Shown: positions 3,034-58,937 of the stretch, piece after piece
How positions within the stretch are numbered: the stretch's first letter is position 1
How the letters are laid out: each line of letters begins with the position of its first letter
Assembly (NCBI GenBank): GCA_018674305.1
Contig: JABHAL010000004.1
Span: 256,446-320,445 of the forward strand
Direction of reading: 5' to 3'
Length of the DNA: 64,000 nt
From: Candidatus Falkowbacteria bacterium
GTDB lineage: Bacteria; Patescibacteriota; Patescibacteriia; UBA11705; JABHMO01
Program-made: the position numbers and the translations under genes
The notes under the pieces: model-generated
What the model was told of the DNA's origin: nothing
Seen by the model: the letters and a program-made list of their open reading frames with translations, nothing else
Database searches by the model: none

Positions 3034-5547
3034 ATGCCAAAGAAAAAACAAACTGAAAAAAAGCCCAACGAAGAGCAGGCTCCAATCAAGGCAGCAGTTC
3101 AGGATATTTCTATAATTGATGAAATGCAAAGTTCATACATTGATTATGCTATGAGTGTTATAGTTTCTCGAGCGTTGCCAGATGTCCGAGATGGGCTAAA
3201 GCCTGTTCATCGTCGAATTCTGTATGCTATGTGGAGCGTTGGACTTCGTTCTAGTTCTAAATTTCGTAAATCGGCTACGGTAGTCGGTGAGGTTTTAGGT
3301 AAATATCATCCGCATGGTGATCAAGCTGTTTATGATTCAATGGCTAGGATGGCTCAGGACTTTAACATGCGCTACATGTTGGTTAATGGTCAGGGAAACT
3401 TTGGTTCAATGGATGGTGATAGGCCAGCGGCGATGCGTTATACCGAAGCAAAATTAAGAGGCATTTCTGAAGAATTATTATTTGATTTAGAAAAAGATAC
3501 TGTTGATTTTAATCCCAACTATGACGGATCCCACAAAGAGCCCAGTGTTTTGCCAGCCAAGTTGCCACATTTACTTTTGAATGGTGGTGTGGGTATTGCA
3601 GTTGGTATGGCAACCAAGATACCTCCCCATAACCTGATGGAAGTTTGTGATGCGGTGTGTCATATGATTGATAATCCCGATTGTAATTCAGAAGATTTAA
3701 TGGAGCATGTCAAAGGCCCAGATTTCCCAACTGGCGGTATTATTTATGATCAAACTGAAATAAAAAGAGCTTACACTACGGGAAAAGGTAAGATTGTTAT
3801 GCGTGGTAAAACTGAGATTGTTGAAAGCAAGGCCGGTCAATTCAAAATAATTATTTCGGAAATTCCATATCAATTAAACAAAGCCAGTCTATTGGAAAAG
3901 ATTGCAGAGTTTGTAAAAACAAAAAGATTAGAAGGTATTAGGGATGTGAGAGATGAGTCTAATAAGGATGGTGTACGAATTGTGGTTGAGCTTAAGCGAG
4001 ATGCTTTCCCTAAAAAAGTTTTGAATCGGTTATTTAAATTAACCCAACTGCAATCAAATTTCGATGTTAATATGTTGGCTTTGACGGGTGATTATCAGCC
4101 AAAGGTTATGAACTTGTTTGATATTCTTAATTATTATCTTATTCATCGTCAGGAAGTTGTTGTTCGGCGAACAAAATATGAATTAAAAAAAGCAGAAGAT
4201 CGTGCACATATTTTGGAAGGTTTAAGCAAGGCCATTGATAAGATCGATGCAGTGATAAAAATCATTAGAAAATCAAAAGACAAGGAATTAGCAAAGCAAA
4301 ATTTAATTAAGCAATTTAAATTTACTGATATTCAAGCAGTTGCTATTTTGGAAATGCGATTACAGAACTTGGCGAATTTGGAGCGTTTAAAAATAGAAAA
4401 CGAATTAAAAGAAAAGAAAAAAATTATTGCCGCATTAAAAAAATTACTATCTTCTAAAAAAGGTATTTTGGGTGTAATTAAAGATGAGTTAACTGAAATT
4501 AAAGAAAAATATGGTGATGAACGAAAGACTAAGATCATTAAGTCGGCAGTAGGTGAGTTTTCTCAGGAAGACTTGGTCCCGAATGAGCCAGCCTTGGTAA
4601 TGGTCACAACGGATGGATATATTAAACGAATGCCACTAGAGACTTTCAAAACTCAACATCGAGGAGGTAAAGGGGTTATCGGTCTAACAACCAAGGAGGA
4701 AGATGTTGTTGATTTATTATTTACTACTTTGACACATAACGATTTGTTGTTTTTCACTTCAATGGGCAGAGTGTTTCAGCTAAAAGCTTATGATTTGCCA
4801 ATTGGTTCAAGAACCTCAAAGGGACAGGCCTTGGTCAATTTCCTTCAGCTCGGACCTGATGAAAAAGTAACAGAAATATTACCAATAAAAGATCAGACCG
4901 ATGCTAAGTTTTTATTCATGGTTACTGAGAAGGGAACGATTAAGAAAACTGCGATTGAAGATTTTGCTAATGTCCGTCGTTCTGGCTTGATTGCTATTCG
5001 TCTAAAGCCTGGGGACCGTTTACGTTGGGTTAAACCAACTAATGGAAAAAAGCAAATGATGTTAATTTCTGCTCGTGGTCAAGCAATCAGGTTTGCGGAA
5101 AAAGACGTACGAAGCATGGGGCGTACTGCGGCAGGTGTGCGTGGTATTAGACTGAAAGCCGATGATCAATTAGTAGGTGTCGGAATGATTGAACCGGACA
5201 AAGAAAAAGTTTTGCAAGTTTTGACCTTAGCAGAAAACGGCTTTGGTAAGCGTTCAAACCTATCAAACTACAAAGTCCAAAATCGTGGTGGTGGTGGTAT
5301 CAGAACCTTGAAGGTTTCCAGCAAAACCGGAAAAGTTGTGAAAGGGATGATTATTGATTCTGAGCAAAATAAAGATAATGATATTATGGTCATTTCTAGT
5401 AAAGGTCAAGTAATAAGAATGCCTTTCAAGACGATCAGCGAACTTGGGCGTGATACTCAGGGAGTTCGATTGATGCGCTTTAAAGAATCCAAGGATAAGG
5501 TAGTTACATTTTCAAAAATTGTAACTGACGTGAAAGATCGAGGATAA
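3034..5547 (+). CDS. gyrA: DNA gyrase subunit A
   Basis: N-terminal [27 protein letters not shown] motif and C-terminal beta-pinwheel repeats; 837 aa. Confidence 0.95.
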
Positions 5548-5571
5548 TAATTTGTAATATAGTTCAAATAA

Positions 5572-5606
5572 AAATCAGGCGCTTTTGAGTCGCCTGATTT
5601 TTTTAT
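5572..5606. terminator. Bidirectional intrinsic terminator between gyrA (+) and nrnA (-)
   Basis: Hairpin atcaggcg-cttttgagt-cgcctgat with a T-run on both strands. Confidence 0.7.
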
Positions 5607-5621
5607 ATATTTATCCTGATT

Positions 5622-6572
5622 TTATATTTTTACTACTGACCAGCCGGCTTCAATCTTTTCCAACTTGCCGGTGATAGAAAAGCCAGCTGCTTTTGCATGT
5701 CCGCCACCGCCGAATTTTTGTGCTAATCTGGACACGTCAATGTGGTCTTTTGTGGTGCGTAGACTACATTTAATAATGTTGTCATCGCTTTCTCTCATTA
5801 CTAAAATTATGTTTGCTTCGTATAAAGTTGTTAGGAAGTTTGCCATGCCTTCAAATACTTCTGGCAGAATGGCGTCTTGTTTGGTGATAACGGCAGTAAC
5901 AATCTTGTGTTTTTCGTTGAAATGTAATTGAGATAGAATTTTACCCCAAAGTTTTAATGCTTCAGGTGAATTATTTCTCCAGGTGTTCTGAATAATCTTT
6001 TTTATGTTAGCTTTGTTTCGCAAAAGTTCAGAGGCGATAGACATTGATTCTTTGGTGGTTCCAGCATTAGTAAAGTAAGTTGTATCAGTTATAATCCCAG
6101 TCAGGAGTAAGGTCCCAATTTCTTTTGTAATTGGAATGTGATGTTTTTTGAGGAAACGATAAATCAACTCCGTGGTAGCGCCAGCCGGTTGAACAACATT
6201 AATGTCAGCGTAATAAGGATTTGTTTGGTGATGATCAATATTAATTGTAGTGATCTTTCCTCGGACTTGTAAAAATTTTTCAGCAACACCAGTTTGAGTA
6301 GTGTCTCCGCAATCCACAGTAATTATTAAATCATAGTTGAAGAAGTTTAATTCCTCTGAATTTGTATAAAATTGGTTTATGTCAAAAAAATCCAGGTTTG
6401 TAGGAACTGGATCTATGTTTCCAATGGTAACTTTTTTGTCTGGTAGAGAATTAATGTAAAATGCCAAAGCACCTGCTGAGCCTAAAGTGTCTGCATCGGG
6501 TCCGCGGTGTGACAAAATGAGAATATTTTTACATTCTTTGATTAGGGAAAATATTTTATCTGAATCGAGCAT
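5622..6572 (-). CDS. nrnA: DHH/DHHA1 phosphoesterase, NrnA-like oligoribonuclease / pAp phosphatase. Start trimmed to MLDSDK to abut the rbfA stop
   Basis: DHH motif region (ILSHRGPDADTLGSA) and DHHA1 GGGH motif (FGGGGHAKAAG). Confidence 0.75.
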   Translation of the reverse strand: MLDSDKIFSLIKECKNILILSHRGPDADTLGSAGALAFYINSLPDKKVTIGNIDPVPTNLDFFDINQFYTNSEELNFFNYDLIITVDCGDTTQTGVAEKFLQVRGKITTINIDHHQTNPYYADINVVQPAGATTELIYRFLKKHHIPITKEIGTLLLTGIITDTTYFTNAGTTKESMSIASELLRNKANIKKIIQNTWRNNSPEALKLWGKILSQLHFNEKHKIVTAVITKQDAILPEVFEGMANFLTTLYEANIILVMRESDDNIIKCSLRTTKDHIDVSRLAQKFGGGGHAKAAGFSITGKLEKIEAGWSVVKI

Positions 6573-24090: not shown

Positions 24091-26076
24091 ATGAATATTA
24101 CCGAGCTGGCCAGAAAATTAAAAGTCAATACTCAAGAACTCAGGGATAAATTACCAGAGATTGGTTTTGATATTGGTCAAAAGGCAATTAAGGTAGATGA
24201 TAAATTAGCATCTAGAATAATTCGATCTTGGCGTGAATTTCAGGACAGGGTAAGACAGAAAGATGCTTATGAGGCTATTACTAATAAAGATGAACAAGGC
24301 AAAGTAATATTAGACAAAAAAGTTGAAATTCCAGGTGTCTTAACAGTTAGAGATTTTGCTGAATTATTGAAATTACCAGTAACGATTGTTATTCAGGAAT
24401 TGATGAAAAATGGAGTAATGGCATCTTTGAATCAACGAATTGATTTTGATACAGCAGCAATTGTGGCAGCTGATTTAGGTTATGAATCATCAGAGATTAA
24501 TGCAGAAGAAAAAACTGAATTAGATAAAGCTCAGAAAGTTTCTGATAAATTAACAGCTGAAAAAGAAGAGGATCTAAAACATCGAGCACCAATTGTAGTT
24601 ATCATGGGGCATGTTGATCACGGTAAAACCAAATTATTGGATGCAATTCGATCAACTGACGTGGTTGCTGGTGAAGCTGGTGGGATTACTCAGCACATTG
24701 GTGCATATCAGGTTGAGAAAAAGGGTCGTATGATCACTTTTATAGATACTCCAGGACATGAAGCTTTTACTGCGATGCGTTCACGTGGTGCAAAGGTGGC
24801 AGATATTGCCGTTTTAGTTGTGGCTGCCAATGAGGGTGTTAAACCGCAAACAGTTGAAGCTCTAAAGATTGCTCAAGAAGCAAAAATTCCAATTTTGGTA
24901 GCTGTAAATAAAATTGATTTGCCTGATGCCAATCCAGATAAAGTAAAACAAGAATTAGGTAATTATAATCTAGTGGCAGAAGAATGGGGAGGTAAGACCG
25001 CCTTTATTGCAATTTCTGCAAAGTTTAATAAAAATATTGATGCTATTTTGGACCATTTGATTTTAATGGCGGACATGGAAGAAGCAACATTGCGTGCCAA
25101 TCCAGACGGTGATTTTGTTGGTAGTATCATTGAGTCGCATGTAAATCCAGGAGCAGGTCCTGTAGCTACGGTATTGGTTCGTAACGGCACATTGAAAGTA
25201 GGTGATCATCTAGTTATTGATGGTGTGTTGTATGGTAAGGTTAAAGTATTGAGAGATTATCATGGAAAAGAAATCGAAGATGCTAAGCTTTCCGTACCAG
25301 CTGAAATTTTAGGATTCAAGATTGCCCCAAAGGTTGGTGATGTCTTAGAAGTGACCGATGATCCAAAATCAGCAGCAAAAGCCAAGTCATATAAAATGCA
25401 AAAAGAAGAAACTTTCATTAAACATTCAGCTGAAGATACTGAAAGTAGTGATGATTCAAAAATTACACAAATAAACTTAATTCTTAGAGCCGATGTACTT
25501 GGATCACAGGAAGCAGTTATCGAATCATTAACTAAAATTCAAAATGCAGATATTAAAATTAAATTTGTTTCTAAGGGATTGGGAAATATAACAGAGAGTG
25601 ATGTTCAGAGTGCAGAAGCAACTGGCTCATTGATTTTAGGATTCAATGTTATGCCTTCAACAGCAGCTACTGATTTAGCAAAAGAAAGTAAGGTTGAAAT
25701 TGAAACCTTTAAAATAATTTATGAATTAATTGATGAGGTCAAAAAAAGACTGAAAGAATTAATCAAACCGGAAGTAGTTCGACGTGATTTAGGAAAATTA
25801 GAAGTAATAGAGATATTCAAGAAAGCTGATAAGATGCAGGTTGTTGGCGGAAAAGTTATTTCTGGAAAAGTTGAATCAAATTCAAAGGTTGCAGTTTTAC
25901 GTGGTGAGGAATTTATAACTTCAGGTAAGGTGACTCAATTGCAAGCTGGAAAACAAGAAGTTAAGGATTGTGTTAAGGGTCAAGAATGTGGCATTAGCTT
26001 TGAAGGTCAGCCTTTAATTGAAAAAGGTGATATTTTGGATATTTATCAAGAAGAAGAAGTTTTTAAATCGTTATAG
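24091..26076 (+). CDS. infB: Translation initiation factor IF-2
   Basis: G-domain motifs [17 protein letters not shown]; C-terminal IF-2 domains. Confidence 0.95.
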
Positions 26077-26106
26077 TAAATAGTAAATAGTAAACCCTAA
26101 CCAAGA

Positions 26107-26245
26107 GGTTTTTTTTGTTACTCCTGATTAATCACTCCCCTCCGTCATTCCGGGCCGTGACCCGGAATCTGTGTGATGATTCATGAGATCCCGGATCAAG
26201 TCCGGGACGACAAGTGAGGGCGCGGGTTTTTTTGTTACTCTTGAC
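26107..26245. repeat. GC-rich ~100-bp structured element in the infB/GGDEF intergenic region. It has two perfect hairpins and is flanked by a direct repeat TTTTTTTGTTACTCYTGA. Possible REP/MITE-like element or structured RNA
   Basis: Hairpins attccggg-ccgtga-cccggaat and cccgga-tcaag-tccggg; GC far above flanks; flanking direct repeats at 26107-26125 and 26226-26245. Confidence 0.5.
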
Positions 26246-26269
26246 AAAATTAAAGTGTTTTGGTAAAGT
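26241..26269 (+). promoter_or_regulatory. Promoter TTGACA-N17-TAAAGT for the GGDEF-like gene
   Basis: Read directly; SD gggagga precedes ATG 26315. Confidence 0.45.
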
Positions 26270-26314
26270 CTTTTATTGATAAGGACCTTTAAATGGACAC
26301 AGGGAGGATGTGAA

Positions 26315-27065
26315 ATGTCTAATCCTACAGATACAGGTACAATTAATTGGTATGAATTGTATCAGCAAACTGAAAGACTGATGAAAAAGACTAGTTCTAA
26401 GCTTAAAGAAGCTGATGACTTGATTGGCTCTATGAGAGTCAAGGAAGATGAATTACTGGCAGAAATTGAGCAATTGAAGGAGAAACTGGATGAGTTTCAA
26501 ACAGATCAGCTAACTGATTTGATGCCATCCAAATTGTTCAATAAAATTTTAGAGAAGTATTTCTTACAAGCGCAACGAAGTCTTCAAAGTGTAACCAATA
26601 GTTTGGGGAAAGCTCCGGGGAAGTCGTTAACAATTTTAGTTATTGATGTTGATCGATTCTCAATGATCAATGATCAATGATCAGTATGGAAGTGATTTTG
26701 GCGATCTGATTTTGCAATTCGTGGCAATGGTTATTAGTAAAAAGATTCGTGGATGTGACATTGTTACCAGAAAAGGTCAACAGTTCCGGGTAGCGCTGAT
26801 TGATTGTGATGCAAAAGCTGGTATTATGAAAGCGCAGGAAATTTCTAAGAGAATAAATCGTCAGGCTTTCGGTAGTGGGCAGGACGACGAGGTCAAAATT
26901 GCTGTTACCATCGGGATCGCTACTTATGATCATAATATGACTTTACCGCAACTGCGTGAAAAAGCATTTTGTGCAATGAAGCATGGCAAGGATGCAGGTT
27001 GTAGGAATTGTGTGTCTGTATATGGGAAGAGTGGAGACTATCAAATTGTCTTCAAGCCTAGCTAA
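26315..27065 (+). pseudogene. Degenerate GGDEF-domain (diguanylate cyclase-like, GQQF instead of GGEEF) protein with an N-terminal coiled coil. It is split into two ORFs by a frameshift at a (CAATGAT)x3 heptamer repeat; removing one unit restores a single in-frame protein
   Basis: ORF1 ends ...LVIDVDRFSMINDQ* and ORF2 begins MINDQYGSDFGDL..RKGQQFRVAL..IGIATYD (GGDEF fold); tandem heptamer at 26662-26684. Confidence 0.6.
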
Positions 27066-45963: not shown

Positions 45964-47109
45964 TTATTTTAAATTTTTATATATTTGTAAAGTTTGTTCA
46001 GCGCATTTTCTCCAGTGAAATCTTTCAACATTATATTTTGCCTTATCAATTAATTCTTGGTTTGTTTTTTTATCAGTTAAGACCAGATTAATTTGTTTGG
46101 CCATTTCCTCAATATTTTTTGGGTCAAAGAATAGGGCAGACTCTCCAAGTGTTTCCGGCATGGATGAGGTGTTGGTTGAGACAACGGGACAGCCACAGTT
46201 TTGAGCTTCTATTCCGATTAAACCAAAGCCTTCAATAAAGGATGGAACAACAAAGGCGGAAGCTCCATTGTAAATCGCCGGTAATTCATCATCTTCAATA
46301 AAGCCTGTGGCAATAATGTCGTGCTTAAAAGGGGATCTATTAATTTCGTCCTGAACCTTTGTATAATGTAAATCCTCTCGACCACCAAGTACTAATTGGA
46401 TATCCAAATTATGCTTTTTCTTTAGTAAATTAAAAGCTTGGATTAATCCTTCAATGTTCTTGTGGGAACGCCAGACACTAACGAAAAATATATACGGTTT
46501 CGTGATACCGAATTTTTCTTTAACTGTACTAATTATACCACTATTTTCAATAATTTTAAAACGTTCGTCCACACCATGATGGATAACTTCAATTTTTTCG
46601 GAATTAATATTGAAATGTCTAACTATATCACGCTTGGTGCTATTGGAAACTGCAATAATTTTACGTGATTTGTGCATTGTTGACTTAAAGACCGTGCGAT
46701 AGGCCCACTGTCTGAATCCGGATTTTGCTTTGTGGCCAGGATAGTAAAAGGGAGTTATGTCATGAATGGTGCAAATTGATTTTTTGCGATATAAAATTGG
46801 TGAATTGAAGTGGGGGTAGTGGATTAGGTCAAATTTATGCTTCATTAATTCCAAAATGAAACTTGTTTGTTCTGTCAAAGTGTAATGTTGAACTTTGGTT
46901 AGCACTTTTGTAACCCGTTCGTTCGGTGGATTGAATCTCGAAAACTCAGGTTCACGCAAGAACAAGATATATTCATTAGTTTTATCCAACATGAAAAGTT
47001 CATCAGTTAATTTCTGAATGTAAGTTCCGATTCCACTGAATTGTGAGGCGCCATACATGCGCGCGTCGATTGCTATTATCATATTCTTAGTTATTGTTCC
47101 TGAATTCAT
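45964..47109 (-). CDS. Glycosyltransferase family 4
   Basis: GT4 signature EGFGLIGIEAQNCGCPVVSTNTSSMPE. Confidence 0.85.
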   Translation of the reverse strand: MNSGTITKNMIIAIDARMYGASQFSGIGTYIQKLTDELFMLDKTNEYILFLREPEFSRFNPPNERVTKVLTKVQHYTLTEQTSFILELMKHKFDLIHYPHFNSPILYRKKSICTIHDITPFYYPGHKAKSGFRQWAYRTVFKSTMHKSRKIIAVSNSTKRDIVRHFNINSEKIEVIHHGVDERFKIIENSGIISTVKEKFGITKPYIFFVSVWRSHKNIEGLIQAFNLLKKKHNLDIQLVLGGREDLHYTKVQDEINRSPFKHDIIATGFIEDDELPAIYNGASAFVVPSFIEGFGLIGIEAQNCGCPVVSTNTSSMPETLGESALFFDPKNIEEMAKQINLVLTDKKTNQELIDKAKYNVERFHWRKCAEQTLQIYKNLK

Positions 47110-47235
47110 TCGGGGTAGCTCCTTTGGCTATTTTCATATTTTTAGTTATTGTTCCTGAATTTATTCGGGGTAGCTCCTTTGGCGATTTTCATATCCTCAG
47201 TTATTATCCCTGAATTCATTCAGGGTACCTCCTTT
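47075..47235. repeat. Three tandem ~55-bp REP-like units, each holding a small hairpin (cctgaat-tc-attcRgg) plus the SD and first ~13 codons of the GT4 gene. The third unit supplies the C-terminus of the transposase-like ORF
   Basis: Direct alignment of units at 47075-47129, 47130-47184 and 47185-47235. Confidence 0.7.
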
Positions 47236-47769
47236 ACACAAAGTTTCAAGAAACATGTTTTCATCTTCATGTTTTTTTATTTTCAAAATAGACATTATTC
47301 TTAGTTCCAGTTCTTCTTGGTCAAATTCTTTACACAGTTCCTGAAAATTACAATATTTATATTTTTTCAATTCATTAAATGAGTGGATAATACCATGGCG
47401 GAGAGGGTTTCCTAGGATATATGCTGAAATGTTAGCATAAGCAAGTTCATCAAATATTGCCCAAGCGTAATATTTTTTCCAAAGTTGTCCTTCTCTGTTA
47501 GTTTGAATGTTAATTAATCGTGCTGATGCTCCCGCTAGATCTTTAAGGAATTTTTTACGTTGTTTTTGTTCTTCACAGTCAATAATTAAATGTAAATGGT
47601 TATTTAGTATGGCGAAATATTCAATATTAACATTATTATTTTTAGCTGCTTTATTAAATTGGTTTAAAATAATTTCTTTCAAAGGGTCGTCGAATTTTAC
47701 AATAATCTGATCAGTGAGTGAATAGGTGATGAAATATTTGCGTTCGGGGTAGAATTGGTATTTGAGCAT
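47197..47769 (-). mobile_element. HuH-Y1 (IS200/IS605-TnpA or RAYT-like) transposase, 190 aa
   Basis: HuH motif NHLHLII and catalytic Tyr region AYILGNP; flanked on both sides by REP-like hairpin repeats. Confidence 0.6.
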
Positions 47770-47870: not shown

Positions 47871-47950
47871 TTCTTAGCAATTATACCTGAATTCATTCGG
47901 GACATTATTTTCAGTTATTATCCCTGAATTTATTCGGGGTACCTCCTTCA
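47862..47950. repeat. Two further REP-like units homologous to 47075-47235
   Basis: Sequence similarity (attttcagttattatccctgaatttattcggggtacctcc). Confidence 0.55.
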
Positions 47951-51050: not shown

Positions 51051-51446
51051 ATGAACTGTCTTGAATTTCGAGCAGTAATTGGAAGAATTGAAGAAATAGC
51101 TCCACGGGGTAAAGATTTCCTTCAATTGCAATTACATGTAAATGGTGAGACTGTGTGTGTTGTTTGCCGACAATTTGCTTTGGCCAGTTTATACCGATTG
51201 AAAGAAGAGGTTGGAGAGGAGTGTCCCGCAGTTGAGCGTCTTAATTTGATCATTTACTATCCGCCGACTTTGATTGATCAATCGATTGAACAACAAAGGG
51301 CTTTTGTGGCTGACAAGTTAGGTGAATTAACACCAGAACAAAGAAGAATCGTTTACAACGAAATTTTAAAAGAAGATTTTAGAGACGGTGATGAACATTT
51401 ACCCTGGCATGACATTGTCAAACGCTTTGTAGCAAAACATACATAG
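51051..51446 (+). CDS. Hypothetical protein
   Basis: SD gagaggtgaaaaATG; followed by two hairpin terminators (51446-51476, 51489-51527). Confidence 0.4.
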   Translation: MNCLEFRAVIGRIEEIAPRGKDFLQLQLHVNGETVCVVCRQFALASLYRLKEEVGEECPAVERLNLIIYYPPTLIDQSIEQQRAFVADKLGELTPEQRRIVYNEILKEDFRDGDEHLPWHDIVKRFVAKHT

Positions 51447-51488
51447 GCTTCGGAACACTTCCGGAGCTTTTTTTGTTTAATAAAAAAT

Positions 51489-51527
51489 AAAGAGGCAATC
51501 TTATTAAGATTGCCTCTTGTGTTTTTC
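51489..51527. terminator. Bidirectional terminator (agaggcaatcttattaagattgcctct)
   Basis: Perfect 11-bp stem; T-runs on both strands. Confidence 0.7.
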
Positions 51528-51530
51528 ACT

Positions 51531-51725
51531 TTAGTTGCTCATTTCGAACAACTCTCGGTCGACCTGTTTGCGAACAGCCTGCTTGCTGTTGCGTCGCACC
51601 AGTCGCCGTGCCAATCGTTTCATGTTCCGCGGGTGACAGCCGTACGGGTTGCAACAGGTGCAACGCCAACCTCCAGGACCCGCTTGCAACTTACCCTTTC
51701 CGAAGTACTCCTTGGCCAAACTCAT
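51531..51725 (-). CDS. Small basic Cys-rich protein (CTCCNPYGCH) in a ~58% GC islet
   Basis: SD gggaagg-N5-ATG; strong compositional contrast; the opposite-strand ORF looks non-coding. Confidence 0.35.
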   Translation of the reverse strand: MSLAKEYFGKGKLQAGPGGWRCTCCNPYGCHPRNMKRLARRLVRRNSKQAVRKQVDRELFEMSN

Positions 51726-51883
51726 TTGCACCTTCCCGGTTATTAAAGCTCTTTATTGAGCTATAATGAAACCGGGGTATGTGCTTCGATGTGTTGAAGT
51801 TCATGTTATCCTCCATGAATTGAATTGAACAAAGAACATAAGATGATATCATACACATTTGGTTTTGTCAAGTATAACTGGTT

Positions 51884-51920
51884 GAATAAAAAACTGCAAC
51901 CCGGGTGGGAGTTGCAGTCT
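51884..51920 (-). terminator. Minus-strand terminator (ctgcaac-ccgggtgggag-gttgcag + T-run) for the lipoprotein gene
   Basis: Read directly. Confidence 0.6.
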
Positions 51921-51946
51921 GTTGTTCTCTAAGGGTTGAGTGCAGA

Positions 51947-52132
51947 CTATTTTTCCATTTCTTTGATTGCAGAACCTATTCCACTTCCTTCTTTTCTGTA
52001 ATCTTCGAGCGTTTTATCGCTGCCGGTTTTCGGAGGTGGCTTCTTCACAACCGGAACGCTGGACGGGTGAGTATGGCCGGTACAGCCAGCGAGAAAACAA
52101 AGGCACATTACGGTAAGTAGCAATCTCTTCAT
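51947..52132 (-). CDS. Small lipoprotein (lipobox LAGC)
   Basis: MKRLLLTVMCLCFLAGC signal/lipobox; SD taggagg; GC-rich. Confidence 0.5.
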   Translation of the reverse strand: MKRLLLTVMCLCFLAGCTGHTHPSSVPVVKKPPPKTGSDKTLEDYRKEGSGIGSAIKEMEK

Positions 52133-52271
52133 CGCAGCCTCCTAATGATCCGTTGGGGGTTAAAGAACAGCTATATATTTTGTTAATTAATTTTGAGGTT
52201 TTTGTCAATAGCTGTAATAGTGATACGGAGGAGACATGTTAAGAAAAAAGTGAAGGCATGACAGCTTTCAC

Positions 52272-52643
52272 TTATTGACTAAAGGTTTTGGAAAAGCCGA
52301 AAATTAGTAAAAGTTGATTTTGTTTAAGCATCTCATTCGGCTGAATATTCGGAGGTAGAGTTATGGAGTTCTGTTGTTTAATGTTTTGCCAGCGAACATA
52401 TTCACCTAAAAAAAGTTTTCTCGTGATTTGTTCCTCTTCAATTGAATAAAGCGTATCTCCAATTTGAGTTTCTACCAGAAAAGTAATGGCGTGAAAATAA
52501 ACTGTTCGAGTTTTGGCTTCGATTTTCCCTAATTTTTTCACTAACGGAAAATATTCAGCTGCTTGAACAGTACCTGAACAAGTAAATAGCAAAATAACAA
52601 TTATAAAGGCAAAAGCTTTAGCAAAACCTTTAAATACTTTCAT
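52272..52643 (-). CDS. Secreted hypothetical protein
   Basis: Signal peptide ...TCSGTVQA; SD gaggagggaaagATG. Confidence 0.45.
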   Translation of the reverse strand: MKVFKGFAKAFAFIIVILLFTCSGTVQAAEYFPLVKKLGKIEAKTRTVYFHAITFLVETQIGDTLYSIEEEQITRKLFLGEYVRWQNIKQQNSITLPPNIQPNEMLKQNQLLLIFGFSKTFSQ

Positions 52644-52812
52644 CTTTCCCTCCTCAATGGATTGACAAGAGTAGGTTAATTAGATGGTAGCTTGACTAAT
52701 TTGAGTTGTCAACAGGTTTGATTTGACAAAGGCTTTGGTCGTGATAAAGTAGGTGTAAGAATTTGAGCAGCTTCTGATCGATCCCATGCTTGTCGTGTGT
52801 GAAGTTCTTCGC

Positions 52813-53955
52813 TTAAGATTTAGCGGAGAACTTTTTTATTTCCTGCAAATAATCTTGAGCAGTTTGATACCAGTGAATATCCTTTGATTTTTGTAAACCT
52901 GCGGCTATATATTGTTTGGCTAGCTTTGAATTAGTCATTTGCTTCATGGCACTGTAGAGATCGTTTGTGTCAGTTGGATTAATTAAAAGGGCAGCTTGTT
53001 GGCAAATTTCTGACATGGATGAATTGTTTGAGGTAATGACGGGACAGCCACAGGCCATTGCTTCAATTGGGGGAAATCCAAACCCCTCATAAAATGAAGG
53101 ATACACAAACATAGAAGCTAAATTGTAAAAATATCGTTTCTCAGAATCTTTGATGTATTTAGTGAAGATAATATTTTTTGACTGTTGTTTGATGATTTTT
53201 TTATAATGCCAACCTGGTTTACCGGCGATTACTAAACTATATTCAGGATGTTCCTGATGAAATAAGTTAAAAGCCTTAATTAGTGAAGTGAGGTTTTTTC
53301 TTGGCTCAATCGTGCCGAGAAACAAAATGAATTTCTCTGGTAGTTTGTATTTATTTTTTATTTTTTTAAATTTAGGATCTTTCGGATTTAAAATTCTATA
53401 ATTCTGAGAAATGCCGGAGTATATAGTTTGAATTTTCTTTGGAGCAATTTTGTAAATGTCGATTAAATCTTGCTTGGTGTTTTTTGAAACAGAAATAACT
53501 TGATCTGCTTGCTGAAAAAGTTTATTAGGATTTACAAACCAATGCCATAGTTTACGTTTGAAAGATAGAAATTCAGGAAAAATTTCAAAACTGAGATCAT
53601 GAGCGGTGATAATGTAGGGACAGTTTGTTTTGAAAAATGAAATATTAGGAAATAAGAATAAATCGATTTTCGAAGATTTGTATTTGTGAATAATTATTTG
53701 ATCAAGTTTTGGGTGAGAAAATATCTTTAACGTTAAGTTGAGTACCTTGTTGGACATTTTGAACTCACAATAATGTACATTGTCTTTGGGAAACTTAGGA
53801 ATATATTTGTTAACCTTTTGTCTGGAATTATAAAAAAGATAGTACTGGTTGGTACTATCTACTTCAAATAAATGTTTTAGGAGATAAAAAGTGTATTCGC
53901 CAACGCCAGTCAGTTCGCGTTCCATTAAGCAACGGATGTCGATACCTATATTCAT
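52813..53955 (-). CDS. Glycosyltransferase family 4
   Basis: EGFGFPPIEAMACGCPVITSNNSSMSE. Confidence 0.85.
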   Translation of the reverse strand: MNIGIDIRCLMERELTGVGEYTFYLLKHLFEVDSTNQYYLFYNSRQKVNKYIPKFPKDNVHYCEFKMSNKVLNLTLKIFSHPKLDQIIIHKYKSSKIDLFLFPNISFFKTNCPYIITAHDLSFEIFPEFLSFKRKLWHWFVNPNKLFQQADQVISVSKNTKQDLIDIYKIAPKKIQTIYSGISQNYRILNPKDPKFKKIKNKYKLPEKFILFLGTIEPRKNLTSLIKAFNLFHQEHPEYSLVIAGKPGWHYKKIIKQQSKNIIFTKYIKDSEKRYFYNLASMFVYPSFYEGFGFPPIEAMACGCPVITSNNSSMSEICQQAALLINPTDTNDLYSAMKQMTNSKLAKQYIAAGLQKSKDIHWYQTAQDYLQEIKKFSAKS

Positions 53956-54074
53956 AAACTCTAAATTCTAATAAATAAACTCTAAACAATTTTTCAAATA
54001 CAAATTTATAAATATCAAAACGTTAATTTGGGTTTTAAATTTTTAATAATTATAATTTGTTCAGGATTTAGAAA

Positions 54075-55169
54075 TTAGGGATTGGGATTTAATTTGTTGA
54101 CTATAAATTCTTTTATTTTTTGTTTAAAAATATTTACATCAAACTGTAAAGCATGTTCTCTAATTGTTTGAGGATTGTAATCTTCAATCTTAAAGCTTAA
54201 AACTTTATCGGCAAGATCTTCCCAGATTTGTTCCTCGAAAAGAGTACCTGTCTTGCCTTCGATTACAGTTTCTGTTGCTCCGCCTGCTCGATAGGCAATT
54301 ACTGGGCGACCACTGGCCATGGCTTCGACAGCAGTGATACCAAAATCTTCAAGTTGTGGATTAAGGAAGGCTTTGCATTTGCTATAAAGAGCAATCTTTT
54401 TTTGTTCCGGCACCTTACCCAAGAATTCAATATTGTTTTTAGCTATTTTTTTTAAATTTTTCAATTGTGGACCATCACCAAATATTTTCAGAGGTAGATT
54501 TAATCGGTTAAAAGCTTGAACAATAAGATCAAACCGTTTATAGCCGACCAGACGACCACCAGCTAGAAAATAATCTTCGACTTTATCAGTAACCTTGAAT
54601 TTGTGAGTGTCCACTGGTGGATAAATTACAGTACTTTCCTTGTTGTAGTATTTTTTTATTCGTTTTTGAACTTCTTTTGAGTTGGCGATAAAGTGATCGA
54701 CTCGGTCAGCTGCGATTTTGTCCCACTGGCGAAGTTTAGTTAACGATATTGGTAACATCTTTTTGATTAAAAAATTCTGATTCAAATCTTTCAGATAGCC
54801 GTGAGTATTAGTCCACAAGAATCGTGGTGGAGTATGACAATAGCAGATGTGTGTTGAGGTTGGTCCAGGTATTACGCCCTTTGAAAAGATTGAAGAGCTG
54901 GATAATATCAACTTGTATTTTGTAACTGGATGGTGCTCAGTTGCAGCTGGCATAAAATTCAAATACCATTGGTACTTGGAAACACCAAAAGGAAAGTTTT
55001 GTAAAAATGAAGTATGTATCTTTTTTTTGGCAAAATCCTGGGCAACATTTTTCTTATCATAAACCAGCGTGTACATTGAGCTTTTAGGAAAAATATCCAT
55101 AAAGGCTTTGGCTACACGCTCAGCGCCTCCGTCCTGCGTTAGGTGGTCATGAACTAGAGCTACATTCAT
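54075..55169 (-). CDS. Glycosyltransferase family 4
   Basis: FGITAVEAMASGRPVIAYRAGGATETV. Confidence 0.85.
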   Translation of the reverse strand: MNVALVHDHLTQDGGAERVAKAFMDIFPKSSMYTLVYDKKNVAQDFAKKKIHTSFLQNFPFGVSKYQWYLNFMPAATEHHPVTKYKLILSSSSIFSKGVIPGPTSTHICYCHTPPRFLWTNTHGYLKDLNQNFLIKKMLPISLTKLRQWDKIAADRVDHFIANSKEVQKRIKKYYNKESTVIYPPVDTHKFKVTDKVEDYFLAGGRLVGYKRFDLIVQAFNRLNLPLKIFGDGPQLKNLKKIAKNNIEFLGKVPEQKKIALYSKCKAFLNPQLEDFGITAVEAMASGRPVIAYRAGGATETVIEGKTGTLFEEQIWEDLADKVLSFKIEDYNPQTIREHALQFDVNIFKQKIKEFIVNKLNPNP

Positions 55170-55395
55170 ATTTACTGAAACATTAAAATATTAAAGCATA
55201 AAAGCATTTACAGTAGATGTTTTCATACTCCAGTGTTCTCTTATTTTCTTGTGTAAGTATCTTAGCAAAATATGTGAAAAAAACCAAGAGTAAACAAAAA
55301 AACTCATTACTGGCATGCTGAACTTGTCCGCCTCGTCCGACTGACGTCGAACAGTCGAGACGGGTTTCAGTATCTAGTAAGGAGTTTGGTTATAG

Positions 55396-56829
55396 TTAAA
55401 CTCGTGATTTTCTTATGAGTACAACAAAGGGTGTCTTTAGCATTACCCAGAAATCAAGTTTTAGTGACCAGTTTTCTATATAGTAGGTGTCAATTTTAAC
55501 TTCTTCGTCAAAGTCCAAATCGCTACGACCAGAAATTTGCGCTACCCCAGTAATGCCTGGTTTAATATCCAAAACTCGTTTGTGATGTTTTTTGTATTTA
55601 GCAACCTCTCTTGGTTGATGTGGTCGTGGTCCAACTAAACTCATGTTTCCAATCCAGACGTTAAATAATTGAGGCAGTTCATCGAGTGAAGACTTTTCCA
55701 TGAACCTACCAATTTTAGTTCGACGTGGATCTTTCAGGATTTTGTAAACTGGCCCATGTCTTTCAGATTGTTTTTCTGCTAGTTTCTTTTCATATTCCAA
55801 GACTTCTTTTTGATTAGTGTATTTTTCAAATTGCTTGCCAGTACAGTACTTGGTGTACATTGATCTGAATTTAAAAACATTGAAAGTTCCTTTGCTATGA
55901 ACACGTTCATTTTTGTAAATTGCTGGACCATTATCTTCTAATCTAATAATAATAGTTAGAAGTATCATTATAGGGCTAAATACAATAATTAGAAAAGTAC
56001 TTAGAATAAAATCTATTAACCTTTTTATAATTTTCCCCCAGCCATCTAGTTTAGTTTTTCGAATTTCAATTAGTGGTACACCCGCAATCATGTGTACTTC
56101 TACGTTGGTTGTTCGTGCTTCGAATTGACCAGCTGCATATTTAAAAATAATGTTATGTTCTGCACAAAAATCTGCTAGATCGATTGAAACCTTTCGGGAT
56201 AAACTCGAATCGGTTTGAACGATTTCATCAATACCTTTTCGCTTTAGTAGCTTGAGCAGATCTTCCTTGTCATTGGGGTCAAATTCTTGAATCCTGGCAA
56301 TTATTTTATAGCCCAATTCAGGTTGTCCCTTGAAGGTATCAATAATTTCTTCTGTGTTTTTGTTTTTTCCAACAATAACAATATTATGGACACCCCAGCC
56401 AGACTTTAGAGTATGGCGATGAATTTTTCGTACAATCACACGAACAAGCATTATTAGAAAAATACTTAACACCCAGGCTGTCAGGACAATGAATCGGGAG
56501 GAGAAATATTCGCGAACAAAAAACATGTAAATAATGATGGCAGTCATGCCAGTGGAACAGGCCAAGACAATTTTAGCTAACTCGTCAGTTACTTTGCGAC
56601 GGTGGAATGAATATAAGCCAGCCGCTGCAAAGAATAATAGCCAGACTGCTGAAACAGATAAAACAAAAATAAAATACCGCTCAAACGGTAAGTCAAAAAT
56701 TACAGGTCTGATTTCCTGAACAGACTCTTCGTAACGAATTACATAAGCCAAGAGCCCAGCTGCCACCAAGGTTATGTAATCAATTGGAATTTTTAGAAAG
56801 GTGAAAAATAATTCAGCATTCTTTTTCAT
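55396..56829 (-). CDS. Polyprenyl-phosphate sugar phosphotransferase (WbaP/WcaJ-like bacterial sugar transferase)
   Basis: N-terminal TM helices plus C-terminal sugar transferase domain (PGITGVAQISGRSDLDFDEEVKIDTYYIENWSL). Confidence 0.85.
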   Translation of the reverse strand: MKKNAELFFTFLKIPIDYITLVAAGLLAYVIRYEESVQEIRPVIFDLPFERYFIFVLSVSAVWLLFFAAAGLYSFHRRKVTDELAKIVLACSTGMTAIIIYMFFVREYFSSRFIVLTAWVLSIFLIMLVRVIVRKIHRHTLKSGWGVHNIVIVGKNKNTEEIIDTFKGQPELGYKIIARIQEFDPNDKEDLLKLLKRKGIDEIVQTDSSLSRKVSIDLADFCAEHNIIFKYAAGQFEARTTNVEVHMIAGVPLIEIRKTKLDGWGKIIKRLIDFILSTFLIIVFSPIMILLTIIIRLEDNGPAIYKNERVHSKGTFNVFKFRSMYTKYCTGKQFEKYTNQKEVLEYEKKLAEKQSERHGPVYKILKDPRRTKIGRFMEKSSLDELPQLFNVWIGNMSLVGPRPHQPREVAKYKKHHKRVLDIKPGITGVAQISGRSDLDFDEEVKIDTYYIENWSLKLDFWVMLKTPFVVLIRKSRV

Positions 56830-56955
56830 ATGATAATAAGATAAAGAAGGCTATAGAAGATCAGTTAGATTTAACTAGCCAAAAGTATTTTGCTTTTGTT
56901 ATCTTCTTCATCCCCTTGCTCTTTTTAATCTTCTTCTAGTGTATCAAATAAAAGA

Positions 56956-57412
56956 GCCATAAACAAGCGAGTAAGCCGGATTCTGTTTTAGCTGTCATCT
57001 ATCTGGGCCAAAGATTACTCTTTGGCTCACGCGGGCTACCAAAACTTGCCCTTGCACTCAGGTAAGGATTTAGCCGTTTCACCCTTGATGTTTCCATCAA
57101 GACTAACCCCGAAGGGTTCCGGGAAATCACTTTCCACGGCGTCCCGATGTTGCTTTCGCAATTCGGGACACCTTGACTCTTGCGAGTCTCGGCGTCTCTG
57201 CTCGCACCTCTATCTCACGATCGACAGGAATTACCTGTTACCCGTGTCAATTAAATAACCGAGTGTCCGGACTTTCCTCCCTTCTTCGCTCTTCACTCCG
57301 TTCAGAGCTACGTAGGGCAAGCCAGTCTCATAAGTTGATTAGGACTAGCCTGCCCTTCGAAGCTCTCGCGAAGCAGAGGGCGAAGAAGGGCGACAGTTCT
57401 GCTTGTTTATGG
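56956..57412 (-). ncRNA. rnpB: RNase P RNA (bacterial type). The 13-bp P1 helix GCCAUAAACAAGC / GCUUGUUUAUGGC defines the ends within about 10 nt
   Basis: Minus-strand P4 signature GGGAGGAAAGUCCGGAC (rc of 57265-57281), 3' P4 strand ACAGAAUCCGGCUUAC (rc of ~56970-56985) and AAGGGUGAAACGG. GC-rich block with no credible ORF; a TTGACA-N17-TATATT promoter starts transcription at the P1 5' end. Confidence 0.75.
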
Positions 57413-57418
57413 CTACAT

Positions 57419-57452
57419 AAAATATAGCAAATTTTATTGAGTTTGTCAAGTT
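57419..57452 (-). promoter_or_regulatory. rnpB promoter TTGACA-N17-TATATT (minus strand)
   Basis: Read directly; the -10 lies ~7 nt upstream of the P1 5' strand. Confidence 0.55.
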
Positions 57453-57504
57453 TTTTGTCTAAATTTATTGCTAATTTAGGTAAAATATATTAATGTTTTT
57501 TTTA

Positions 57505-58413: not shown

Positions 58414-58446
58414 AAAAAGTCCGATCAGAGATCGGACTTTTTTTAA
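58414..58446. terminator. Terminator (aagtccgatc-agag-atcggactt + T-run)
   Basis: Perfect stem. Confidence 0.7.
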
Positions 58447-58937
58447 TTATTCCGGTCATGATGCCAACGTTCAGGATTTGTTCGGATATACCAACGGGAA
58501 TGGTCTAATTCGGATTGATTACGCAAAACGCGGTCGTAATATGATTTTTGCCAACGGAATTCCGATAAACCATTTTGATGAATAAATTTTGATGATGTGG
58601 TTTTGAATGCGCCGATGATTCCGGGGATGGGTTTTGTTTTTCGTGGTAGGGACCGGTCGCGACCGGTCCCTACATCATCGACGATACGAATAATCACATG
58701 AACGTGATTCGGCATAATAATCCATTCATCCAAATTTACATGTTCGTATTGTTTTGTTAACCAAAATAATTGTTGACGTGTAATTACCCCCGATTCATTC
58801 AACACCATTTTATCATTTACGACATTCCCAAACCATTCAATCCGATTATTTGTGCAAATTGTTAAATAATAAAAACCCGCCAATGAATAGTCAATGAATT
58901 TTGCCCGGTTTAATTTTCGATCTGGTCCTGTATACAT
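58443..58937 (-). mobile_element. Second HuH-Y1 (IS200/RAYT-like) transposase, 164 aa, with a perfect 28-bp GC-rich palindrome (58646-58673) embedded in-frame
   Basis: HuH NHVHVII and Tyr motif WYIRTNP; the palindrome gtagggaccggtcgcgaccggtccctac encodes ..VGTGRDRSLP.. Confidence 0.6.

Follow-up and report, generated by a model that had tools for sequence, protein, structure and literature searches.

CGTC-tagged REPs were described by Di Nocera, De Gregorio and Rocco (2013, BMC Genomics 14:522) as a class of repeats that includes the dRS3 of Neisseria and the RPE-4 and RPE-6 of Rickettsia. Each unit is a stem-loop with an unpaired head, CGTC or alternatively TGTC or CCTC, at its 5' end. The stem comprises 8-9 bp with A-T pairs at the first and second positions, the loop has 4-5 nt, and a short unpaired 3' tail follows that has the consensus CCA. 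The units are arranged mostly as inverted dimers that contain a spacer and can be folded as one large stem-loop. They are found mainly 3' of genes and reach tens to thousands of copies per genome. No tyrosine-transposase gene flanked by CGTC units was reported in that study.

The protein partner of the family has been known only since 2025: it is the GIY-YIG ssDNA nuclease Ssn. In the study of Chenal et al. (2025, Nat Commun 16:2388), the NTS is given as CGTCATTCCCGCGMAVGCGGGAATCYRG and generalised to the Ssn-related motifs (SRM), which flank homologues of ssnA (single-domain GIY-YIG, cd10448-like) across phyla. SsnA binds the hairpin as ssDNA only, cuts a few nucleotides 5' of the head and is inactive on dsDNA and on RNA. 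For the enzyme of N. meningitidis, the critical determinants are the three bases (GTC) that precede the palindrome and the C that follows it. The NTS-ssnA-NTS arrangement resembles an insertion sequence, and the multiplication of the units is presumably linked to such an IS-like unit-ssn-unit cassette.

REPIN/RAYT systems (Bertels & Rainey; Nunvar et al.; Ton-Hoang et al.) share with the CGTC family the inverted doublet with a spacer and the long-hairpin fold. In addition, the units of both systems are presumably processed as ssDNA by a small dedicated nuclease, whose gene is flanked by the units. The two systems differ in the head, which is GTAG in the former and CGTC in the latter, and in the enzyme, a Y1 HUH protein as opposed to a GIY-YIG protein. 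A relevant RNA is FtrB of Francisella tularensis, a small RNA of 115 nt that was verified by Northern blot and RACE (Postic et al. 2010).

The window, that is, the whole stretch of DNA analysed here, comprises 64,000 nt (64 kb) of Candidatus Falkowbacteria sequence. Between infB and a GGDEF-domain gene, it carries an insert of 96 bp (Table 1) that is an inverted, heads-outward pair of CGTC-tagged REP units of the dRS3/NTS/Ssn-related motif family. The element is a further, slightly decayed copy of this known hairpin family. The earlier note had described a stretch of about 100 bp with ~60% GC in an AT-rich intergenic region, with two perfect hairpins, a bracketing direct repeat and a GGDEF promoter located directly after the element. 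All of these features were recovered at the positions given. The GC content of the insert is 59%, 23 points above the 36% of the window and the genome; both hairpins are perfect; the repeat spans 21 nt with 19/21 identical positions; and the promoter-like site has the form TTGACA-17-TAAAGT. The overall explanation that we regard as likely is that a CGTC-REP A+B dimer was inserted with a 21-bp duplication and now has a mainly structural role, as a terminator or 3'-end stabiliser of infB.

Table 1. Features of the infB-GGDEF intergenic region and RAYT-like genes of the window (positions in the window).
Feature	Position	Strand	Description
infB	24091-26076	+	IF-2, 661 aa; gene upstream of the element; Pfam
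Native hairpin	26092-26111		Weak hairpin before the first T-run
Direct repeat copy 1	26107-26127		GGTTTTTTTTGTTACTCCTGA; T-run after the weak native hairpin
Insert	26128-26223		96 bp
Left flank of insert	26128-26142	+	TTAATCACTCCCCTC, pyrimidine-rich; base-paired to the right flank when the insert folds as one long hairpin
Long hairpin	26130-26226		Fold of the dimer with its flanks
Unit A	26143-26171	+	Head CGTC 26143-26146; stem ATTCCGGG 26147-26154; loop CCGTGA 26155-26160; stem CCCGGAAT 26161-26168; tail CTG 26169-26171
Hairpin 1	26147-26154 and 26161-26168 (arms)		ATTCCGGG-CCGTGA-CCCGGAAT
Spacer between units A and B	26172-26184		TGTGATGATTCAT, 13 nt tail to tail
Unit B	26185-26212	-	Head TGTC 26212-26209; stem GTCCCGGA; loop CTTGA; stem TCCGGGAT; tail CTC
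Hairpin 2	26188-26208		ATCCCGGA-TCAAG-TCCGGGAC
Right flank of insert	26213-26223	+	AGTGAGGGCGC, partly complementary to the left flank
Direct repeat copy 2	26224-26244		GGGTTTTTTTGTTACTCTTGA; T7 directly after the long hairpin; 3' end overlaps the -35 box
T7 run	26227-26233		Follows the long hairpin
Promoter-like site	26241-26269	+	TTGACA-17-TAAAGT; sigma-70-like, TG-extended, 10/12 matches; predicted GGDEF promoter
RBS of the GGDEF gene	26302-26307		GGGAGG; ATG at 26315
GGDEF-domain gene	26315-27065	+	Gene downstream of the element; Pfam
Heptamer repeat in the GGDEF gene	26663-26683		(ATGATCA)x3
RAYT1	47197-47769	-	Y1_Tnp/REP-tyrosine-transposase-like
RAYT2	58443-58937	-	Y1_Tnp/REP-tyrosine-transposase-like

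Units A and B are inverted copies of each other, and the element constitutes a palindromic dimer with the heads directed outward. The stem of unit A is a perfect helix of 8 bp, and that of unit B has 8 bp with a G.T pair at position 1. The latter results from an A to G exchange at the first stem base with respect to the canonical TGTC-ATCCCGGA-CTTGA-TCCGGGAT, which is found with A at this position in L031, L128, L130 and L134-L136 of the loci fetched from other genomes. The calculated folding energies of the individual hairpins are -12.5 kcal/mol for unit A and -12.7 kcal/mol for unit B (z = -2.4 and -2.8 with respect to shuffles, almost all of which fold less well). Owing to the inverted relation of the two hairpins, the whole insert has a single long imperfect hairpin as its fold of lowest energy, with -42.4 kcal/mol on the + strand (z = -2.6 against shuffles) and -46.6 kcal/mol on the - strand (z = -4.8). 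The 64-kb window contains this single dimer, and no second copy of the element was found in it.

A comparison of the element with the published CGTC-REPs reveals the same architecture. The head is CGTC in unit A (+ strand) and TGTC in unit B (- strand), the 8-bp stems start with A-T and T-A pairs apart from the G.T pair of unit B, and the inverted dimer is foldable as one hairpin. The loop of unit B is CTTGA, and both tails begin with C. The position of the element is 3' of a coding region, with no tyrosine transposase nearby. The differences lie in the loop of unit A, which has 6 nt (CCGTGA) instead of 4-5, and in the tails, with CTG in unit A and CTC in unit B instead of CCA. Moreover, the Patescibacteria host is outside the five phyla given for CGTC repeats in 2013, the element is apparently present as a single copy in 64 kb as opposed to tens to thousands of copies per genome, and it is enclosed by the 21-nt direct repeat.

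The variation within the family was evaluated in the fetched loci, where units were counted as GTC followed by a perfect 8-bp stem starting with AT (n = 278). A stem other than the one searched for was found in 94 of the 278 units; the number of different stems, each with perfect complementarity, is 32 altogether, as opposed to 0 in the reversed-sequence controls. GTC is preceded by T or C in 252/277 units (T in 139, C in 113). The loop of unit B, CTTGA, is the commonest 5-nt loop of the sample (42 units of 278), and the 6-nt loop of unit A is common to 15 other units of the fetched loci. The tails CTG (7/278) and CTC (23/278) represent minority variants with respect to CCA (174/278). The head, the stem starting with AT, the loop and the CCA tail measured in this way match the CGTC-REP definition of Di Nocera et al. 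(2013).

The architecture is also that of the NTS/SRM, and both units of the window have kept the GTC that precedes the palindrome and the C that follows it. The published SRM string, HGTCWYN(0-2)YYVSBRHN(0-5)WNVSBRGN(0-2)RNCYNB, used as a regular expression, recognises the NTS as well as the canonical B unit but neither of the two units in the window, owing to the 6-nt loop of unit A and to the G that takes the place of W after GTC in unit B. The window dimer looks like an old copy by its sequence: the two copies of the repeat have diverged at 2 of 21 positions, the A to G exchange is present in unit B, both tails deviate from the CCA consensus, and four assemblies are identical at the locus, which together would be in agreement with an old, fixed element.

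Copies of the units are widespread in other genomes. A scan with the pattern TCATTCCGGG-N6-CCCGGAATC for unit A, with one genome per species, returned the exact pattern in at least 120 contig stretches of species-representative genomes from many phyla. Among the matches listed, the Patescibacteria are represented by Saccharibacteria, Moran-, Collier-, Komeili- and Gracilibacteria and by Parcubacteria. The listed matches also include Prevotella and other Bacteroidota, Pirellulaceae (Planctomycetota), Fibrobacter (Fibrobacterota) and Treponema (Spirochaetota), as well as Thiosymbion, Proteobacteria, Chloroflexota, Elusimicrobiota, Zixibacteria, Clostridia and others. The contigs with an exact unit A have, among the matches listed, a GC content of 31-75%; the genome of the window is not among these matches. 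A very frequent arrangement elsewhere is (C/T)GTCATTCC-stem-loop-stem-GGAATC-CAG ... CTG-GATNCC-stem-loop-stem-GGNATGAC, which corresponds to heads-outward inverted dimers, and CCTCC-like left and GGAGG-like right flanks recur around other copies.

The fetched loci contain 72 distinct heads-outward dimers, and the spacer between the units varies among the copies elsewhere. A second scan, with the A unit, a spacer and CCGGATCAAGTCCGG, revealed the same A+B heterodimer in 13 metagenome loci, in addition to L031, a metagenome-assembled genome of Patescibacteria. The whole window dimer aligns to those of L136 and L031 with 80-85% identity over ~70 nt (E = 1e-11 to 1e-12). The dimer of L031 was considered as an orthologous locus and rejected, as it is positioned after a pseudouridine synthase gene and not after infB. 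One partial match was found in the plasmid collection and no match to the element in the phage collection. The REP/MITE-type insertion proposed in the earlier note is right in kind, since the element belongs to a large palindromic repeat family with many copies elsewhere.

When the ORFs around the units in the fetched loci were clustered, little was recurrent except ABC ATPases, small proteins of the GIY-YIG type and a few blocks of synteny. Five single-domain GIY-YIG (PF01541) ORFs of 79-111 aa were found, and CGTC units directly adjoin 5/5 of them, which, as these loci were fetched through the motif, shows an association and not a frequency. The units are located on both sides of the ORF in four loci (L053, L058, L088 and L132); in the fifth, L102, the locus is truncated at its start, so that only the downstream side of the ORF is visible. 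Units with the ATTCCGGG stem adjoin the GIY-YIG ORFs in L053, L088, L102 and L132. In L088, a + unit (5373-5394) and a - unit (5706-5727) enclose the gene (5426-5689). Units with a 6-nt loop flank the GIY-YIG genes in L088 and L102, and L058 is a Patescibacteria locus with a unit-flanked GIY-YIG gene. As with the NTS/SRM, the small GIY-YIG genes of the fetched loci, including that of L058, are flanked by units with the stems ATTCCGGG, ATCCCGGC and ATGGCGGC. This association agrees with the work of Chenal et al. (2025), in which the Ssn partner is already published. By contrast with the NTS/SRM, the window has no ssn gene: a tblastn search of the 64 kb with five Ssn-like proteins detected no GIY-YIG/Ssn homologue, and nothing below E = 0.4.

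Four assemblies that come from different samples do not differ at a single base of the locus, and the MAGs that contain it include GCA_018665965.1 and GCA_018703365.1. The nearest other IF-2 proteins have only 69-75% identity, and the loci of these relatives keep the synteny of a methyltransferase gene, infB and then a GGDEF or thioredoxin gene. The relatives L143 and L145 have retained the CTTGACA box at the corresponding position, ahead of the downstream gene. The intergenic regions downstream of infB contain other, unrelated hairpins in the relatives and are not alignable with that of the window, and the CGTC dimer is absent from the intergenic regions of these nearest relatives. The GGDEF gene of the window is broken into two ORFs by the heptamer repeat given in Table 1.

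The two copies of the flanking direct repeat are 90% identical and have a spacing of 117 nt. In the controls, only 5 of 216 random pairs of 50-nt flanks displayed a repeat of at least 14 nt. Among the 72 other dimers, no flanking direct repeats beyond these controls were found except inside tandem arrays, and the 21-nt repeat thus sets this locus apart. The MITE criterion, by which each copy has a target-site duplication of fixed length around it, was considered as a property of the family and is rejected by the same 72 dimers. The downstream copy, for which the earlier note had suggested a target-site-like duplication, overlaps the -35 box of the GGDEF promoter. The boundaries of the repeat lie 16 and 12 nt outside the heads and do not coincide with the cut position of the Neisseria Ssn, which is a few nucleotides from the head.

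A target duplication upon insertion of the 96-bp piece would be the simplest reading of this arrangement, to judge from the two copies. One A+B heterodimer would have entered the interval that separates the 3' end of infB from the -35 box of the GGDEF gene, and 21 bp of the target (T-run and GTTACTCYTGA), reaching from the T-run into the beginning of the -35 box, would have been duplicated in the process. Of the two copies, the left one would then have lost the -35 sequence (CCTGAT) and the right one would have kept it (CTTGACA), which would have preserved the GGDEF promoter. Slippage or a template switch at the palindrome is equally possible as the origin of the repeat. An insertion with duplication is without precedent, given that a flanking repeat is not a property of the family. 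The predicted empty site, consisting of the left flank, one copy of the repeat and the right flank, is CCCTAACCAAGAGG-T(7-8)-GTTACTCYTGACAAAATTAAAG; this pattern had no match in the metagenome contigs, which did not return the filled locus either. That the 21-bp duplication is the footprint left by the entry of a CGTC-REP/SRM dimer, for example through repair of a widely staggered break or template switching at a terminator, and that such footprints normally decay and this one was kept by chance, is a tentative idea and rather unlikely. If true, it would be the first structural clue to the mobility mechanism of the CGTC-REP/SRM family, and it would imply that the element reached the ultra-small genome of a Patescibacteria host that possibly lacks an Ssn of its own, that is, a spread between phyla.

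The upstream copy of the repeat had been proposed to be the native terminator of infB. The hairpin before the first T-run has a folding energy of only -3.7 kcal/mol, no better than that of shuffles, which does not bear out this assignment. The long hairpin, with -42.4 kcal/mol, is followed by T7. A scan with a consensus terminator model reported none; the long structure exceeds the loop and stem limits of that scan. Because the hairpin of the dimer is strong, T7 lies directly after it and the native hairpin is weak, we infer a terminator-like role: the insert with the duplicated T-run would most likely constitute a strong intrinsic terminator or a 3'-end stabiliser for infB, upstream of the GGDEF promoter. 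The present effect of the element would thus be structural, in that the dimer would provide infB with a strong terminator where the native hairpin is weak.

A terminator might also have evolved locally, as an idiosyncratic structure with no relation to a repeat family, and the direct repeat might have arisen by local slippage or tandem duplication. The single copy in the window, the presence of a hairpin with a T-run and the unrelated hairpins that the relatives carry at the same place would agree with such an origin. It is nevertheless very improbable, as many unrelated genomes contain both units, and also the whole dimer, in exact or near-exact form and the GC content exceeds that of the genome by 23 points; for the hairpins themselves, an idiosyncratic origin is refuted by the copies elsewhere. 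For the 21-nt repeat alone, slippage is a possible origin. We consider it similarly doubtful, to the point of being very unlikely, that the element is a REPIN, that is, a pair of GTAG-type REPs mobilised by a RAYT (Y1 HUH) transposase of the window. The link to RAYT genes made in the earlier note is correct insofar as two RAYT-like genes are present in the window, and the inverted REP doublet with its long-hairpin fold is arranged as in REPINs. The heads, however, are CGTC and TGTC and not GTAG, and the RAYT genes have different hairpins of their own, neither of which resembles the CGTC units: RAYT1 is flanked by four copies of the unrelated AT-rich hairpin CCTGAATTYATTCRGGGTASCTCC, and RAYT2 contains a perfect internal GTAG...CTAC palindrome. 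A phmmer search with both RAYT proteins against all ORFs of the ~135 fetched loci revealed no RAYT homologue near CGTC units. The absence of tyrosine-transposase genes with flanking CGTC units in the study of Di Nocera et al. (2013), and the connection of the CGTC class to the GIY-YIG protein Ssn (Chenal et al. 2025), also argue against a REPIN.

The readings at the RNA level have in common that the hairpins would have been selected as a transcript. A small structured RNA gene similar to FtrB, or a stable fragment of the infB 3'-UTR that acts in trans, is improbable on balance. The scan of the whole window against Rfam detected no family at the gathering threshold, and the relaxed scan gave matches at chance level only, except for a weak one to FtrB (RF02748). 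This alignment is full-length, with 23.1 bits and E = 0.17, and falls far under the threshold of 66 bits. FtrB and the window element are alike in their length of ~115 nt and in the two hairpins, the first of the form GTCATTCC-stem-loop-stem-GGAATC and the second with a UCAAG loop; they differ in their stems. FtrB, a verified sRNA, contains GTCATTCCCGCGTAGGCGGGAATC, the same kind of unit as a CGTC-REP, and the weak resemblance is due to this CGTC-type unit. The position of the element 3' of a highly expressed gene, in sense orientation, would also suit an RNA. On the other hand, the scanned region has no promoter-like site ahead of the element, the first pair of unit B becomes an A.C mismatch on the infB-sense strand, and a reader at the DNA level explains the conservation of the family, SsnA binding ssDNA and not RNA. 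A cis-regulatory leader of the GGDEF gene, either an attenuator or a riboswitch, is extremely improbable, even if the element is highly structured and lies directly upstream of that gene. The best promoter-like site is downstream of the element, which renders the attenuator envisaged in the earlier note unlikely, and CTTGACA is kept at the same place in relatives without the element. In addition, no riboswitch family was matched, and the same element adjoins unrelated genes elsewhere.

The identity of the element is settled as a copy of the CGTC-REP/dRS3/NTS/SRM family, and neither as a new RNA nor as a RAYT-driven REPIN. The 21-nt flanking duplication is its only unusual feature and could bear on how these elements move. 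With respect to annotation, such GC-rich islands in the AT-rich genomes of the CPR are to be regarded as SRM/CGTC-REP dimers and not as novel ncRNAs; such units also appear to be the building blocks of at least one sRNA known from experiments, FtrB. The unit with the ATTCCGGG stem is conserved to the base in genomes of 31-75% GC and in many more phyla than the five of 2013, including several lineages of Patescibacteria. The class with the 6-nt loop is found beside GIY-YIG genes and is missed by the published SRM string.

Compared with positions 26124-26236 of the window, the Francisella sRNA FtrB (Rfam RF02748) seems to combine a CGTC-type unit, GTCATTCCCGCGTAGGCGGGAATC, as read from the probe sequence in the FtrB paper (Postic et al. 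2010), with a further hairpin whose loop is UCAAG. Judged from sequence, this composition suggests that FtrB is a transcribed dimer of the SRM (Ssn-related motif)/CGTC-REP type. Many dimers with exactly the unit A of the window element, including an identical CCGTGA loop, were found in the MAG 'bacterium isolate nzgw370' (loci L019, L032, L043, L066, L069 and L111), and their 55-nt spacers hold a terminator-like hairpin, AAAAAGCCAAACG...CGTTTGGCTTTTTT. At five other loci, CGTC units tightly flank small GIY-YIG (Ssn-like) genes. Those units that have 6-nt loops, ATTCCGGG-N6-CCCGGAAT, escape the degenerate string published for SRM searches in 2025, which therefore under-counts this class.

Features of the window and of fetched loci from other genomes
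Feature	Location	Strand	Remark
Triple heptamer ATGATCA x3	window 26663-26683		within GGDEF gene
AT-rich hairpin repeat CCTGAATTYATTCRGGGTASCTCC	window 47099-47232 and 47923-47946		around RAYT-like gene 47197-47769(-)
GC-rich stretch (up to 62%)	window 51520-52130		long gap between annotated-size ORFs
RNase P RNA, bacterial class A	window 56956-57409	minus	109.2 bits vs gathering score 100; E = 1.7e-33
Perfect 28-nt GC-rich palindrome GTAGGGACCGGTCGCGACCGGTCCCTAC	window 58646-58673		within RAYT-like ORF 58443-58937(-)
infB-downstream hairpins of relatives	L143 4530-4580; L145 4510-4600; L141 4500-4570
Small GIY-YIG (Ssn-like) genes with CGTC units	L088 5373-5727; L102 472-805; L053 3174-3970; L132 204-624; L058 2330-2771

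Small palindromic inserts seem to have landed repeatedly in the spacer downstream of infB. The hairpins of the three relatives are unrelated to the window element and occupy the same intergenic position after infB; in L143, a CTTGAC direct repeat brackets a GC-rich hairpin and adjoins a conserved CTTGACA box. The GGDEF gene beyond the spacer consists of two overlapping ORFs (26315-26680 and 26670-27065) with the break at the triple heptamer, and it is split identically in the gene calls of other assemblies. The intact orthologue in L143 comprises 247 aa, and removal of one heptamer from the window gene would give a single frame like that of L143. The split could reflect slippage-prone frameshifting or a pseudogene.

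Four copies of the AT-rich hairpin CCTGAATTYATTCRGGGTASCTCC surround the first RAYT-like gene (chance expectation 0). Three form a 55-nt tandem on one side, the fourth lies on the opposite side, and all have the same orientation. The copies overlap both the beginning of gene 45964-47109 and the RAYT ORF at its end. The hairpin is possibly the REP belonging to this gene. The palindrome in the second RAYT-like gene lies in frame, has GTAG/CTAC ends, and looks like a GTAG-type REP that was either inserted into the transposase gene or is carried by it.

The RNase P RNA match came from a scan restricted to 51400-57500. When the whole window was scanned at the gathering threshold, this match did not appear, presumably because the speed filters had removed it. 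The composition of the GC-rich stretch suggests a foreign origin, and its minus strand contains a short ORF rich in cysteine and arginine.
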